Assembly (NCBI GenBank): GCA_965205975.1
Contig: OZ242195.1
Span: 1,568,001 to 1,632,000, forward strand
Source of the DNA: Candidatus Latescibacterota bacterium
Lineage (GTDB): Bacteria > Latescibacterota > UBA2968
Direction: 5' to 3'
Length of the DNA stretch: 64,000 bases
This document shows positions 8,401-56,400 of the stretch, piece after piece. The first letter of the stretch is position 1, and each line of letters opens with the position of its first letter. Made by a program: the position numbers.

Positions 8401-11400
8401 CTCGGTCAGCAGTGCAACCACGTCCAGGCTACCATCAGCAGTGACATACCAGGCAGTTTCCTGCTCAAACTCCTCCTGGACCACCCACGTCAGTTCGCGG
8501 GGAACGACCTCGGCGTAGATGGGATTGGCGATACGCACGGGACGATCCTGAGCCACCAGGCCGAGATCGCGCACATACTCTATGTCGCGGTCAATGAAGC
8601 GGCGCTCCTCGGCTCCGCTCAAGAGTGGCTCGACAACGCGCCGCACGCGGTCTTCCTTGAGCTTGTCGGCCAACTGATCCAGGTGTGTCTCTCGGCGCAG
8701 GATGAGTTGCTCTTGCGCTTCTCGGATGGCCTCGGCGGTGATCGCGATACTGCGGTCTTCTGCTGCTTCCCCATAGAAACAGGTCTCATCCGCCAGCGCA
8801 TTCACCAGATAGGGTTGCCCTTGTGTCTGCGTCCAGACCGTCTCCAGCGCGGCGGCGGTGAACGCCTGTCCCGTCTCCTCCGTATGCTGCCCGAGCAGGG
8901 CAATTACCTCATCTTGCGAGAAGTCACCGAGGCGCAGGGATCGCGCTTTGATATTGAACGCACTGCCACCGGCGATGAGGGCGTTCTCTGCAGTTGATTG
9001 GATGCGGTAATCGCGCACATCGCGCACCCCGCACAGCACCACACTCTGTGGAAATCCCTCCGGGCGGCGGACATAGCCAGCCCGCAACTGCCGCAGCACA
9101 GACAGCAGCGAATCGCCAATCAGAGCATCGATCTCATCAATAAGCAGTACCAGGGGTTTTGAGTTCGCCTCGGTCCAGCGCGTCAACGCTTCGCGCAGGG
9201 CGCCGTGGGGTCCGTATTTTGATAGAATGTCGGGCCAAATATCGTCCAGAAATTCGTCGCCCAGTGTCGAACGCGCCCAGGAGGCCAGTTCGCCCAGAAT
9301 GGTACGCATCACCTGTTCCACATCTTCGCGTGCGGCCTGCCCACCTTCGATATTGACGTACACACACCGATAGGCGTCTTCGGCATTGAGCAAATCGCGC
9401 AGCGCCAACAATGCCGAAGTCTTGCCCGTCTGCCGGGGCGCGTGCAAGACAAAGTAGCGTTTGTCGCGGATAAGCCGGCGCACATCGGCAAGGTTCAGCC
9501 GTTTTAGGGGCGGGATACAGTAATGATCTGCTGCCACCACAGGACCGCTCGTATTGAAGAAGCGCATGGATCACACCCTCTCTGTAGAAATCCATGTGAA
9601 ACAGAGGTAGATGTCAAAAGATATATCTGCCCAGAAACATTGTCAAATGCCAACCCTACAATCGGGCAGGCACAAGACCTGCCCCTACGGACCAATTTTC
9701 ACGGTGCTCTGGAACCAGGCCGTTCACGAGACGGATGCTGTCCCCGGTAGGGATGTGGAGCCACCGCCATCGTCCGTGCAACCCGAAAACCGATATAATT
9801 CCGCCGCCAAGTAGCGGTAGATCATGACATTCCAAGTTTACTAATGGTAGCGAGATCTCCGTTCCACGGTCTTCTACCAATTGTACCCAGGGAGATGTAT
9901 CAGGTTGCTTTTGAGTACCCCACAGGACATGGTATTCTGTTAGTGCATTGGTCAGGCCTTCCGTTCTCAGACAACGGCTTTGCCAACGGGATGTTCAGGA
10001 GGAGATTGGGCTTTTTTCACACAACATTCGAGGAATGAGGCATCACCACTACACCCGACAAGAGTCATACCGCTATTATACTGCGAAAACTCCCACTCAG
10101 TCTTTGACGATTTGCGCCGCTTCAATTGCAACTCAGCTTTGACACCCTGGAGAGTTCCACGACCATTGCTCGTTTCTCCGCCCAGAGCAGCATGCCCATG
10201 CCAGAAGTCGCGCAAAGTCAAGAACAACAAGCCATTGTGTTCTAATTGCAAGAGACGTTCCTGATCAAGTGTTTTTTCAGCCTTAAACACAAAAACACTA
10301 CCAGAGGCGATAGCGGGCCATTGCTGACGCGGGAGGCGCAGGTGGGAATTATATCCGCCAATTATCTCAGTGCGGGTATAGCTACTGCATAGTTTGAGTT
10401 CCGAGGTCTTCAGCCCCAGATTGTCAGCCAACTTACGCTCGGGAAAACACGCCTCCGGGTGTCCGTAATCGTTGACAGTCAGCAAAATTGAGTAGCGCAT
10501 TGCCAGGAGGCTCAAAGAACCTTACTCGCGCTTGAAATACCAGATCTGCTTTCAAGGTACGGGTGAGACGGAGTGTATTCTCAAGTGCTGCGCCTGTCCT
10601 GCGGTCAATAGCGGTCTGGGCACGCACGGAGGCAAAATGCTCCACAACATCGTCTGGGGAAAGTTTTTTATGGTGCTGTAAATATCTCAACCATTCTCTT
10701 AAAGACGACGCCTCTTGTAATTCAGCATTGGCAATATATAGACAAGCATCCCCTTGTCCTGAATTACCGAAAATATGCTCCACTGGCATAGGGAATTCAC
10801 CGCATAACTTCCACGCATCGGCAACATCGCGATAGGCTTCGCGCCATAACCCTTTGATTCGCCTGCCAGGGAGAATGGGTAATCCTAAGTCGTCAAAGGC
10901 TATATCGCGATCAACCACGCCCACACGCCCTTCACCAGCGGCAGAGGTTAGCGGCGATTGCAGTGTGATTTGCAAAAAATACTCAGTCATTCTTGATCTC
11001 CTTCCCTGTACTCTCGCCATCTTTTACTGGTTTCTTCACTTCTAAAAGGAAGCGCGGTTGGCTATCTTCTCCTACATTGAAGGATGGTATAATCCGCATC
11101 GCAGGCATTCTTCCATCGCCTACTATGCGCCGATAGCTTATGAAAAGTTGCATCTATCACAGGCTTGATACACAAGCCCTAAACTCTCCACCGAAGCGGG
11201 GTAACTCCACCCATCAAGGATGTGTTATCCTGGAGCCACAAAACCTCAAGATTGGAGAGTTTACCCAATGCTGCTGGAATCGCACCCTCCAACTGATTGC
11301 TACTGAGGTCCAGGTAAGTGAGACTGGGAAGGCTGAACAATTCGGAAGGAATTGTCATCAGTTGATTATCTCTCATATAGAGCCTGCTGAGCACGGTCAG

Positions 11401-53400: not shown

Positions 53401-56400
53401 GGAGTTTGTTTTGAAACTGATACAGAGCAGCGCTTTGTCCAATAAATCTATTGTCTCCCTGGCTATTGAGCGCCGTTTTCAGGCCTTCGATACGCGGATC
53501 TTCCTCTACCGAGATCTGCACCTGCACAATCTCCGAGTAATTGAGGTCGCGATCTATCGCCCGGACCTGAAAGGTGTAGTCTCCCGGCGGCAAGTCCCGG
53601 TAATGCGCCCGCGTCTTTCGGGTCGGTAGCTGCCAGTTGGGGTCGTGTCCTTTTAATCGGCAAACATACAGCATATCGCGGGAATGGGTGGAAAAACTCA
53701 GGCCCTTGTACTCTAAAATCACATTCTGATCTGCGGTAGATACGATAATTTCCTCCGGACTCTCATAGACCTGATTGGCAATCACCTGCAGCAGGCGAAT
53801 CCGGGGCGGCGTTTGTAGCGGACGGTAGCGTATGACATTACCCTGCATAGTGCCAAACCAAAAGGCGCCGTCGCGATCTTCGAATATCTGAGAAACCGGT
53901 CCTATATGCGGTGACTTGATGGCCTGAAAATGCTGTCCATTGTAGTGAACCACGCCCCTATCTGTGCCGAACCAGAGGTGGCCTTGCGAATCCTCGAATA
54001 GACAACGGATGTGGTTGCTCGGCAACCCGTCTTCTGTCGTGAAGGTGTGGAAAGTGCGACCATCAAAGCGGCACATACCGCTCAAAGTGGCGATCCACAG
54101 GTTGCCTGCGCGGTCTAAGAGCAGGTCAGTGACCTGGTTGTCTGTCAGCCCATCTTCAATGCCATAAAATTTGAGACCCTCTTCGGGATGCCAGCGCGCC
54201 AGACCCTTGTCGCCAACTGAGAAATTGTGGCAGACCAAATGAAAATAGATCTCGCCCTTGCGCCCGACAACCACAGTGCCAATGCGGTCTAAAAAACCTT
54301 CCTTTTTGTCCTTTAAAAAAATGGTTTGAAACTGCTCGCCCCGCTGGTAAATGATCTTTAATGGGCTGGGCGAAAGCACTTCTTTTTTTATAAATTCGGT
54401 TTTATAGGTGCTCTGTTCCCAATAGCCAAAAATGAATTGGCCTTCCTGGTCCTGCGCGATTGCACTAACACTTTTTTTGTCTAATTCTGCGATTGTTTCT
54501 ATTTTTTTAACCTTCTGCCCATCGTAGCGGAACACGCCATTGAGGCCGCCAAACCACAGATACCCTTCGCGGTCCTCGTACATAGAGAAACAGTTGTGGA
54601 TATCGAAGCCCTGCTCGGAGCCTAAAAATGCAAAGTGTTCGCCATCAAAACGGGCGATGTCGTTGCTCTGGGTGACCAGAATAGGGGAAACATACCCGAT
54701 CCATATATCACCTCGCCGGTCTTGCGCGATCTGCGAGACCTCGCTCGGCTCTTTGGAAAACGCCTTACCCAGGTCAAAAACGCTGATACTATGTGCATCG
54801 TAGAGCCCTAAACCGCCCCAGGTGGCAAACCAATACTGATGATTGCGATCCTGAAACACGGCTTTGACTGCGGGATGGGGCAAGCCATCGGCAAGGGGAA
54901 ACCTGTTGAATCCTTCTCCGTCCTGGTATAATACGCCCTCAGAAGTGCTGAACCACATCCGACCTGTACCGTCACACTGAATTTTACGTAATCTACCACC
55001 CAAATCTATTTGAACAGACTGGAAGGTCCCATCGGCATAGCACCGGAGTTCATCTCGATTTCCAAACCGACCGATCCACACTTTGCCGGTATGATCTTTA
55101 TCTACGATATAGGCGGTTCCATCTGGCGGAAAGCCATCTTTCTCCTCATAGCGGTGGAAGGATTCACCATCAAAGCGGATGAGGAAACTACAGCCAAACC
55201 ACAGATGACCTTGCGGATCCTGGGTAATACCCCAACACTTGGCCCACCTATCAGAAGGCGGCTGCTTGTATTGCTGAAGGTAGAGCGGAATCATGTCGTG
55301 GAAAGCAGTGCCATCGCAATACCCCAGAGTTCTCGGGCCACCGCACCATATACGCCCCTCACGGTCTTCGTAGATGGACTGCACGTCTCGGCCTGCAATG
55401 CCCTCGTCATTCAAATGGTGAAAATCTGTTCCATCGTACCAGCATACGCCATTTTCTGTACCGAACCACAACCGATTCTGACTGTCTTGTAAAACAAAAT
55501 AAGTACGATCGTGAATAAGACCGTCCTGTTTGGTAAAATTCTGGAACTCGTCCCCATCAAAGCGACAGGCACCGTTGTCCCATGTGGCGAACCAGATACA
55601 GCCCTCGCTATCTTCGGCGATGTGTTCAATGCGCGTCCCGGTCAGGCCATCGGCTATCGAATAAGTCCGATAGGTACCCGTGCGGTCAAGTGGTTTGATC
55701 ATAGGAAGAACCTTGTGATAGTGAGAATGGTTGAGGGATTTGTCGGTGTTGGCATTGGGGCGCTGACATAATCCGGCTTTATGTCATTGGCTCGGTCTTA
55801 TCCTTTATTAAATGTTATTACTTTTTTTGGTGTAGGGATAAAGATGTCAAAGTCTTCGGGTGGTCCGTAAGTAATACCGACCTGAGAAAGAGCAATGGTA
55901 AATTCCTGCGTCACATTTACTTTGGTAACGAACTCGACCCGAGCTAAAAACCCGGACGATGGTAGGCGCACCTTTGGTTGTTCATTTCTCACAGAAAGAA
56001 TACTTTCATTGGCAGATGCTATAAAAGCATTGAAGAAGACATTGTTCTCGATTTTGGAATACGTTAGAATATTTGAATCAAAATCAAACTTAATGTACGC
56101 GCCTAAGAAAGGTCTGTTCACGATGGCGAATACTTCAATGGCAATTTTCTTACCCTGTCCAGACACTTGCCCTGAAGTAACGCGATCATCTCTCTTGTTA
56201 CCTATCCCACCATCGATAATAAAATCAAGTGCTAAGGTGTCAGAAGGAGCAGTCTGTGCGACCTGTTCATCTCTTTCATTTGGCGTATCTGGCTCAACCG
56301 GCTGAGGCCCTGATATCTTGTTACCACCGCAAGACAACACCGATAAACAAAAGAGCAGAACGCAAGATAACCACAATCTATTGCTCAACATGTAAATCTC

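Follow-up and report, generated by a model that had tools for sequence, protein, structure and literature searches.

A 64,000-nucleotide stretch of contig OZ242195.1 from a Candidatus Latescibacterota bacterium (hereafter the window) contains genes of secreted repeat proteins beside genes of propeller-bearing regulators, which raises the question of how such repeat proteins are switched on. Eukaryote-like proteins have been catalogued in sponge-associated Latescibacterota, and the words "sigma" and "regulator" are absent from the main text of that work (PMC12993501). Our literature searches returned nothing on the control of such eukaryote-like proteins. In our study, the regulators are probably cytoplasmic one-component sigma-54 activators (enhancer-binding proteins), with a double propeller and Y_Y_Y of the HTCS type as the predicted regulatory domain. 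This reading draws on the adjacency of regulators and promoters with its distance and orientation, on their joint presence and absence, and on the matching of HTH types with palindromes.

Regulator Proteins

The window contains three intact regulators, R1, R2, and R3 (Table 1). Their Pfam order is Reg_prop, Y_Y_Y (ending at aa 727-731), Sigma54_activat (PF00158, from aa 752-754, 213-216 bits), AAA_lid_14, and HTH_8. The survey's finding had given the same order; it had called HTH_8 solely in g03930, and a weak match is present in all three window regulators as well. Histidine kinase, receiver, and AraC HTH had no Pfam match in them. Walker A/B, R-finger, sensor II, and WPGNVRELE were all present, the AAA+ loop of R1 was GAFTGA, and the AAA+ part structurally matched the NtrC1/FleQ folds. 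The best NCBIfam scores were those of NorR, NifA, PrdR, and FhlA, all below the cut-off. The fourth fusion that had been counted, g03930 (R4, loop GAFTSA), represents the 3' portion of a gene that has a frameshift around codon 66, and a decayed fifth copy was found (R5, contig 2543337-2545634, 765 aa). Compared with the full protein, R5 is missing aa 167-248 and 551-776; its loop, GAFASA, has lost the threonine.

The cytoplasmic location was judged from hydropathy and N-terminal sequence, by which neither a signal peptide nor a membrane helix was found in R1, R2, and R3. The top 19-residue hydropathy means were 1.07, 1.27, and 1.40, respectively, against 1.91 and 2.19 in two propeller proteins of the same genome; these match the kinase values given earlier, and the hydropathy claim was borne out. 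Each of the three starts is preceded by an in-frame stop, at distances of 12, 10, and ~27 codons, with no hydrophobic run in between. The lengths of the linker between sensor and ATPase cluster at 15, 18, 22, 25, and 32 residues and so differ by 3, 4, or 7, a spacing that fits a signalling helix; model confidence is low there (pLDDT <50 at residues 737-748). Signal peptide and membrane helix were both absent in 72/72 distant AAA fusions and in 44/49 of another set, and a signal peptide was present in 31/35 membrane-helix proteins from the same wider set as the 72 fusions. At the level of sequence and structural model, the domain order, the lack of export signals, the intact ATPase motifs, and a linker of 12-32 residues in the place where a membrane helix would be are thereby established.

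Since no membrane helix separates the sensor from the ATPase and HTH of its own polypeptide, all of them must share one compartment. R4 and several relatives are frameshifted, as would be expected if the fusions were artefacts of assembly or gene calling. This explanation, or export of the sensor after all, is nevertheless extremely unlikely, as 120/120 listed close clusters have a single open frame, and neither a Tat motif nor a stretch reaching a hydropathy of 1.8 occurs in them.

Table 1. Features of the window, in window coordinates
Feature	Coordinates	Strand	Remarks
g01416, dockerin/EF-hand-LRR protein, 260 aa	11179..11961	-	secreted
Promoter module divergent from R1	12188..12372 (upstream end approximate)	-	-24/-12 box 12188-12203
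R1 = g01417, 1073 aa	12481..15702	+	14-blade double propeller, Y_Y_Y, short helix, sigma-54 AAA+, HTH
Calx-beta/SWM/fn3/cadherin protein, 3826 aa	18102..29582	-	C-terminal domain autotransporter-like; GC-rich cargo
Promoter module of R2	29697..29935 (upstream end approximate)	-	-24/-12 box 29697-29712
Dockerin/cadherin/fn3/LRR protein, 833 aa	30013..32514	-	secreted
R2 = g01423, 1063 aa	32554..35745	-	loop GAFTSA; recognition helix PSSTLFSK
Calx-beta/SWM protein, 1772 aa	35903..41221	-	
GH16-SWM-fn3 protein, 1955 aa	41268..47135	-	tail FlgD/T9SS-type
Calx-beta/cadherin/fn3/PKD protein, 1681 aa	47190..52235	-	FlgD/T9SS-type tail; heads the gene run of the R3 promoter
Promoter module directly 3' of R3	52272..52500	-	-24/-12 box 52272-52287
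R3 = g01427, 1065 aa	52505..55702	-	loop GAFTSA
g01428, lipoprotein-like, 197 aa	55798..56455	-	bare -24/-12 box 56440-56455

Sigma-54 Promoter Module

In the promoter module, repeated palindromes stand together with a long hairpin, an IHF-like site, and a -24/-12 box. The palindromes are 14-16 bp long and occur in two or three copies ~100-210 bases upstream of the -24/-12 promoter, with the IHF-like site between. The R1 module contains AGAC[CG]-N6-[CG]GTCT palindromes, the R2 module GGGCG-N6-CGCCC palindromes, and the R3 module three GGGCG palindromes, each with the hairpin and the IHF-like site. The R2 module is 96% identical over 179 nt with the module at 52266-52444, and a single GGGCG palindrome remains upstream of the 833-aa gene. 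The Rfam scan of the window matched only a tRNA, so the module hairpin belongs to no known RNA family; it also went uncalled when 11900-12500 was scanned for terminators. The hairpin may be a terminator, a cruciform, or a protein site.

Exact TGGCAC-N5-TTGCW sites were found at five positions of the window (7596, 12188, 29697, 52272, and 56440), and the genome has 41, a count made over genic and intergenic DNA alike. At one mismatch or fewer the window has 10 sites against a shuffled mean of 2.27, and 0/100 shuffles were as high. A sigma-54 promoter had been claimed beside each fusion. The exact sites are there, but the 833-aa gene separates g01423 (R2) from its module, and the g01428 box lacks the enhancer part, the DNA upstream of it being an insertion-sequence-like piece with two further copies in the genome. 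g01428 was rejected as a current target; it had no family match and is unrelated to the 197-aa gene at locus L038.

A -24/-12 box lies within 600 bp of 35/54 regulators (control, 45/2811 ORFs), and 19/54 have no site inside this distance. In the 35 regulators with a box, its position was downstream in 24 cases, divergent in 13, and convergent in none. A promoter model trained on other genomes alone recovered all three window modules together with orphan copies. The sequence elements of an enhancer-dependent sigma-54 system are thus present, namely a C-terminal HTH, upstream palindromes, the -24/-12 box, and rpoN; the genome has one copy of rpoN and four of HU/IHF-family genes. The portable promoter module paired with regulators is new here.

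Matching of HTH Types and Palindromes

The module was absent from exactly 4/21 genomes of the genus, the same four that have no regulator. Module and regulator counts were correlated (Spearman 0.93, n = 21; 0.87 in the 17 genomes with a regulator). The palindrome class agreed with the nearest HTH in 33/35 cases and with the nearest sensor in 19/35, the classes being assigned by eye with the HTH sequences visible and the genomes including relatives that are not independent. Since the HTH and the downstream promoter are physically linked, co-inheritance accounts for part of this match.

A second clade repeats the design, with the downstream box in 18/22. RYRM helices occur there with CACG-N6-CGTG (11) and RSRM helices with TACG-N6-CGTA (6), one being unscored, and the Y/S helix state needs five changes on the sensor tree of this clade. 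In the genome under study, a relic HTH end precedes the palindrome type predicted for that HTH. Copies with GAFASA or GAFANA, in which the loop threonine is lost, have a promoter alongside in 1/8. The sequences strongly indicate that each HTH type would bind its own palindrome of 14-16 bp.

The promoters might instead be driven by other sigma-54 activators, their proximity to the regulators reflecting shared variable islands. About 18 further ORFs of the genome match the sigma-54 ATPase, and an integrase fragment and IS256 are present in the window. This is very unlikely, however, in view of the fixed distance and orientation of module and regulator, their joint presence and absence, and the HTH-palindrome matching in two clades.

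Predicted Target Genes

The first genes behind the module encode LRR, WD40, fn3, or cadherin proteins in 14/32 cases and glycan enzymes in 2/32, both PL8 lyases (loci L019 and L026); 9/32 have no Pfam match. Other enzymes, secreted proteins of no known kind, further regulators, a superinfection-immunity protein, and redox enzymes are also among the targets, and a GH16 gene, a LacI gene, and TonB receptors were found behind promoters. Cytoplasmic one-component activators acting on neighbouring promoters of secreted repeat proteins, as first proposed, remain the probable reading, but the targets are wider than adhesins, and a target class of giant adhesins only was rejected. The loci are not sugar-utilisation clusters, and the conserved neighbours of the regulators are mostly housekeeping genes. 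In the window, g01416 has a 900-aa LRR orthologue, of which it is a short form (70% identity), and the C-termini of the 1772-aa and 3826-aa proteins share 88% DNA identity.

Sensor Fold and Candidate Ligands

The N-terminal 735 aa best matched BT4663 (PDB 4a2l/4a2m), BT3049 (3v9f), and BT4673 (3ott) in structure and sequence. The TM-score of the sensor model against BT4663/BT3049 was 0.62-0.68 on the target. Identity to BT4663 is 18-19% and the alignment is fragmentary, so that ligand residues are not mappable. Entropy was 1.31 in the entry-face loops, 0.72 on the opposite face, and 0.52 in the core. Hypervariable positions make up 31/135 of the entry face, and R24, W41, N43, D65, R105, Y198, W295, D369, N390, D519, and D579 are conserved amid these variable loops. 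Arg, Trp, Tyr, Asn, and Asp are usual in sugar-binding sites.

The characterised Reg_prop+Y_Y_Y sensors described in PMC3243724 and in the BguR preprint (10.64898/2026.01.10.698779) bind oligosaccharides or govern glycan use. By analogy of fold with the HTCS sensors, which is the argument for an oligosaccharide, an imported carbohydrate fragment of a host or dietary glycan may be the most likely single ligand class, at somewhat below an even chance. The low number of lyases among the first genes (2/32), the nine first genes lacking a Pfam match, the mainly housekeeping neighbours, and the low identity to BT4663 count against a sugar. With the same wiring, the propellers might bind a protein, a peptide, or a non-sugar metabolite (e.g., host- or phage-derived, or a partner protein), and the family would then serve as a battery of receptors inside the cell that direct remodelling of its surface; the chance of this ligand step, too, is somewhat below even. 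The oligosaccharide sensors, the conserved entry-face residues, and the PL8, GH16, LacI, and TonB genes behind promoters argue against a non-sugar ligand. The hypervariable entry face, the recombination of sensors against outputs, and targets that lie outside sugar catabolism (surface repeat proteins, the superinfection-immunity protein, redox enzymes, and regulators) argue for it, as does PorZ, which has an equal two-propeller layout and does another job as described in the accessible text of PMC5121618.

A further explanation is that the sensor no longer controls the output, GAFTSA being largely constitutive and regulator plus promoter having spread as an expression cassette for GC-rich cargo of recent acquisition. 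GAFTSA makes up 90/118 matched loops among 120 close homologues. NorR tolerates the change carried by R2-R4: when its second loop glycine is replaced by serine or asparagine it stays active, serine escaping repression partly and asparagine fully (PMC2941729). Cargo genes have 59-67% GC against ~50% for the regulators, and broken regulator copies are common. We consider this unlikely, since the 730-residue sensor is conserved about as well as the ATPase (mean column identity 0.77-0.85 vs 0.85 in close homologues), GAFTGA is kept in 67/72 distant fusions, and the way in which variation differs between the faces points to selection on binding.

Proposed Mechanism

For the cytoplasmic activators, we propose that a ligand in the cytoplasm would bind the propellers on their variable entry faces. 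The resulting movement, relayed by Y_Y_Y and the short helix, would free the AAA+ domain, whose ring would assemble on the enhancer. The regulator would then activate the adjoining modules as well as orphan copies at other sites. Genes headed by these modules encode LRR, WD40, cadherin/fn3, FG-GAP, and autotransporter proteins, along with some enzymes and additional regulators. Recombination between paralogues may swap sensor halves against HTH-plus-promoter halves; R3 and R2 are 92-100% identical in DNA over the 3' half and 73-93% over the 5' part.

A bolder proposal, which we regard as possible but doubtful, is that the symbiont governs its surface display through a combinatorial switchboard. 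Hypervariable propeller receptors would recombine against HTH-plus-enhancer outputs, the modules would front newly gained eukaryote-like or adhesin genes, and two orders of Latescibacterota would each have seen an expansion of the design. If true, the cell could choose its surface repertoire from host-derived molecules taken up.

Comparison with Known Systems

BT4663, BT3049, and BT4673 of Bacteroides resemble the window regulators in having two seven-bladed Reg_prop propellers and Y_Y_Y. These HTCS own a signal peptide, a periplasmic sensor, a membrane helix, a kinase, a receiver, and an AraC HTH (accessible part of PMC3243724), all absent from the window regulators, and the output here would be a cytoplasmic sigma-54 ATPase. 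BguR of Formosa agariphila (bioRxiv 10.64898/2026.01.10.698779) and SusR share the one-component design, the lack of a phosphorelay, and a binding motif beside the gene. The available text of the preprint describes BguR as spanning the membrane, carrying a GerE HTH, working without ATP, and controlling a laminarin utilisation locus, unlike the window regulators, in which a single membrane helix with a GerE-type HTH was not found. Filing them as HTCS or BguR was rejected because the membrane features are absent.

The AAA+ and HTH halves are like those of NorR, FhlA, NifA, and DmpR/XylR, and the several enhancer copies recall the three sites of NorR. The regulatory domains of sigma-54 activators named in the accessible parts of PMC7175178 and PMC12316311 are receiver, PRD, PAS, V4R, ACT, and GAF, with no 730-residue double propeller among them. 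Sigma-54 activators would thus gain a new class of regulatory domain, and an HTCS sensor would work without a membrane. The palindrome classes matched to HTH types provide a predicted regulator-enhancer code for LRR, WD40, FG-GAP, cadherin, and fn3 genes. Rebuilding it in E. coli alongside a reporter is feasible and would permit a ligand screen for what switches on eukaryote-like proteins.

Distribution

Among the papers listed by literature searches, none described a fusion of a propeller sensor with a sigma-54 activator. The same modules occur in other combinations, namely membrane-anchored Reg_prop-Y_Y_Y-TM-sigma-54 fusions (P0152, P0236, and P0264) and Reg_prop-Y_Y_Y kinases and SpoIIE phosphatases that lack a membrane segment (P0139, P0214, and P0213), all of them represented in databases only by automatically named entries. 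These entries make clear that the sensor in its cytoplasmic form is a broader module, used with several outputs.

The named relatives of the regulators are Ca. Latescibacterota. The architecture extends beyond this organism and this kind of locus, and Poribacteria also carry the propeller-sigma-54 fusion. Deeper-branching members lie next to REC-AraC or glycosyltransferase-transglutaminase genes, and most of them have no sigma-54 site alongside; among L215 and L223-L235, a strict adjacent site was found in one and a relaxed site in three more. A locus search with the full alignment picked ATPase motifs alone and returned 80 general activators. The full-length profile was matched in 78/168 genomes of the phylum, a few matches spanning the sensor alone, and the copy-number survey, which scored four candidates per genome, gives lower bounds. 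Within the genus, 0-10 copies per genome were found, and the four genomes without a regulator may form one subclade.

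Architecture of the regulators

The three window regulators (R1, R2 and R3), which join a Reg_prop double propeller and Y_Y_Y sensor to a sigma-54 AAA+ ATPase, were each found to be one uninterrupted reading frame, R2 and R3 both being 73% identical to R1. The order of Pfam domains was Reg_prop repeats, Y_Y_Y (ending at residues 727–731), Sigma54_activat (starting at 752–754), AAA lid and a weak Fis-type HTH; the HTH, which the survey had found only in g03930 (R4), was not confined to that copy. The survey's reading of a fusion devoid of membrane segment and signal peptide was confirmed in R1–R3 by a hydropathy peak of 1.07–1.40 over 19 residues, an N-terminus that was at once the first propeller strand, with nothing before it, and in-frame stops a short distance upstream of the starts. 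The genome contained one rpoN gene, four HU/IHF-family genes and two further regulator copies. One of these, R4, was not the intact fusion previously supposed and carried a frameshift near codon 66; the other contained two internal deletions and a GAFASA loop.

The AlphaFold2 model, built with 84 sequences (mean pLDDT 85.7), showed 14 propeller blades followed by the Ig-like Y_Y_Y, a low-confidence helix at 734–744, and then the AAA+ and HTH domains. Among solved structures the best matches were BT4663 and BT3049 (periplasmic domains; TM 0.62–0.68 on the target, 18–19% identity), followed by NtrC1 and FleQ. On the propeller entry faces, assigned by blade order and not by coordinates, variable loops encircled a small number of conserved residues (Arg, Trp, Tyr, Asn and Asp). 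Across the homologues listed from a distant-member query, linker lengths clustered at 15, 18, 22, 25 and 32 residues, intervals that a signalling helix would be expected to show.

The sensor was like that of the Bacteroides hybrid two-component sensors (HTCS), yet the regulators were not HTCS, nor were they of the BguR type (preprint 10.64898/2026.01.10.698779). The fusion regulators are real, and no description of the fusion or of its promoter module appeared among the results listed for searches of open-licence PubMed Central and bioRxiv, though a supplementary domain-architecture table may include the fusion. Many such proteins were already present in databases under automatic names.

Promoter module and its link to the regulators

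The module contained two or three palindromes of 14–16 bp upstream of the sigma-54 box, a long inverted repeat with T-rich DNA behind it (z −4.9 to −7.0, 0/200 shuffles; no Rfam family match), and a near-invariant AAA[CT]AA-N4-TTR word, which resembles the IHF consensus. In our genome this word preceded 10 of 55 sigma-54 boxes, all 10 being module matches. A module model derived solely from other genomes recovered all three window modules and orphan copies; the latter preceded two Calx-beta giants (3607 and 5846 aa), a gene for a WD40 protein, and regulator genes of the LacI and AraC types.

The survey had tied regulators to targets by adjacency. We examined 54 regulators with flanks (5 of our own and 49 from L001–L050, after removal of duplicates, fragments and edge cases) for a TGGCA[CT]-N5-TTGC box no more than 600 bp away, either downstream in the same orientation or divergent upstream. 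Such a box was present in 35 (24 downstream, 13 divergent) versus 45/2811 long ORFs of our genome; no convergent box was found among the 54, and copies without the loop threonine had a box in only 1/8. The module model matched 25/132 class genomes. The four genus genomes without module (97–99% complete) were the same four without regulator, and the counts of both correlated within the genus (0.93, n=21; 0.87, n=17). In a distant genus the module occurred in 3/31 genomes, two of which held near copies of the window clade's regulator. All these figures overstate significance because kin are not independent. The link was supported by more than adjacency, but the deeper-branching members (L215, L223–L235) had few adjacent boxes (1 strict, 3 relaxed), which counts against generality; their neighbours were REC-AraC and glycosyltransferase-transglutaminase genes. 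In L223, L226, L230 and L231 a glycosyltransferase-transglutaminase fusion of 830–850 aa and REC-AraC adjoined the regulator.

Palindrome class and HTH

Palindromes of 35 regulators were sorted by eye into nine classes, which agreed with the nearest HTH in 33/35 and with the nearest sensor in 19/35; on the sensor tree they took 15 changes versus a minimum of 8. Four divergent promoters (L016, L021, L024, L029), although at the gene's sensor end, nonetheless tracked the HTH. R2 and R3 (helix PSSTLFSK) were accompanied by GGGCG-N6-CGCCC, R1 by AGAC[CG]-N6-[CG]GTCT and R4 by AGCGATATATCGCT palindromes. A relic HTH end at contig position 2689100, with PSTLYNKM, lay ahead of the TCCGTATATGGA class predicted for that helix, its sigma-54 box being lost. 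The identity between R2 and R3, 92–100% in the 3′ half versus 73–93% in the 5′ part, fits an exchange of output halves.

The design recurred in a second clade, from another order, where the box was a variant (in most cases TGGCAC-N5-GTGC) and was located 168–360 bp downstream in 18/22 regulators. RYRM helices occurred with CACG-N6-CGTG (11) and RSRM with TACG-N6-CGTA (6), one being unscored; the Y/S state took 5 changes on the sensor tree.

Target genes, mechanism and ligand

Among relatives, 34 promoters were adjacent and 32 first genes were scanned, leaving out a second regulator and a 69-aa ORF. LRR/WD40/fn3/cadherin/FG-GAP proteins made up 14/32, followed by other enzymes or domains (5), PL8 chondroitin-type lyases (2) and superinfection-immunity proteins (2); 9 had no match. 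Orphan modules (21 genes scanned from 24 ORFs listed) headed 7 repeat proteins, 3 regulators (a kinase-fused sigma-54 activator, REC-AraC and LacI), 6 others and 5 without match. A module ahead of a kinase-fused activator (L250) suggests a regulatory cascade. L246 contained four modules in 20 kb, each ahead of a protein with a hydrophobic N-terminus. The 28 downstream proteins of the second clade were 12 FG-GAP, 8 PD40, 6 thioredoxin-like and 2 blanks. The 3826-aa window protein contained a C-terminal autotransporter-like domain (Atlas score 0.96; no NCBIfam match), and two other window proteins ended in a T9SS-type tail.

Most likely, a dimeric regulator would rest on the enhancers, its sensor restraining the ATPase; once a cytoplasmic ligand is bound, the ring would touch the sigma-54 polymerase via an IHF bend, as described for other enhancer-binding proteins (PMC7175178). 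Here the dimer state and the sign of control are what we infer. GAFTSA, found in 90/118 matched loops, is compatible with activity: the equivalent serine change in NorR is reported active, with partial escape from repression (PMC2941729). The survey had proposed sensing of oligosaccharides, which are reported ligands of HTCS sensors of the same fold (PMC3243724, PMC5121618); a carbohydrate is therefore a tentative first guess. A protein or other molecule is an equally plausible ligand. The target genes are unlike those of a sugar-utilisation locus.

Distribution

The sensor was found in 50 loci, 48 labelled Latescibacterota/Latescibacteria and 2 Gemmatimonadota; several fusion-family proteins from homologue searches bore the name Poribacteria. 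HTH matches were present in 16/20 other genus genomes (1–10 each), and at least 78/168 phylum genomes matched the full-length profile, a few by the sensor only. Of the 150 top-scoring representatives (50% identity), 44 were AAA fusions that lacked both signal peptide and membrane helix, 5 were flagged with a helix (intact loop match in P0152, P0236 and P0264) and 22 were membrane-less proteins with other outputs, kinases and a SpoIIE phosphatase being among those scanned. Among 120 proteins listed from a distant-member query, both signals were absent in 72/72 AAA fusions, and 31/35 membrane-helix proteins had a signal peptide. An ESM Atlas cluster of 70 members, most commonly Latescibacterota, had only an automatic name. 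Sponge association of the source organism is inferred from phylum literature (PMC12993501). In P0125, P0126, P0133, P0219 and others, both cytoplasmic and exported, the propellers were preceded by an extra domain of some 110 aa that opened with 'LARLSFW' at the N-terminus and had no Pfam match in those scanned.

Neighbouring elements

Positions of the regulators and of elements in the window and in loci (L-numbers) of relatives or of our genome
Feature	Location	Remark
tRNA-Phe	window 2359–2434	
Tyrosine-recombinase/ATPase fusion without N-terminal part	window 5401–7077	
Exact sigma-54 box of the recombinase/ATPase fusion	window 7596–7611	upstream palindromes unlike module
R1 (g01417)	window 12481–15702, +	1073 aa
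IS256-family transposase	window 16185–17507	
R2 (g01423)	window 32554–35745, −	1063 aa
R3 (g01427)	window 52505–55702, −	1065 aa
REC-AraC or AraC genes	L089:7508–8224, L092:7049–7852, L086:7004–7411	own genome
Superinfection-immunity gene	L009:13449–13820, L020:13451–13822	behind sigma-54 promoter, flanked by tandem regulators
Ser/Thr kinase-fused sigma-54 activator	L250:807–5306	headed by GGGCG-class module
Decayed module before TonB-dependent-receptor-like gene (label by sequence features)	L088:6992–10177	own genome; −24 box unrecognisable

Window 2359–11020, which also contained an AAA protein and broken RAMP pieces, is an island edge. Within 15722–17877, a 113-aa ORF is presumably nucleotidyltransferase-like by motif, and a PKD-like lipoprotein ORF extended into the IS end. 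The L089, L092 and L086 promoters contained the IHF-like and −24/−12 part as in the module, with other upstream palindromes; two of these genes headed paralogous clusters that also included short peptide-like ORFs and an ABC transporter. The threonine that contacts sigma-54 was missing from a GAFASA/GAFANA clade (L010–L013, L047 and position 2543337 of our contig), possibly an inhibitor or hetero-oligomer partner, which was kept at one site after nurA-herA, glycosyltransferase and aminotransferase genes, in many cases with an intact copy in tandem.
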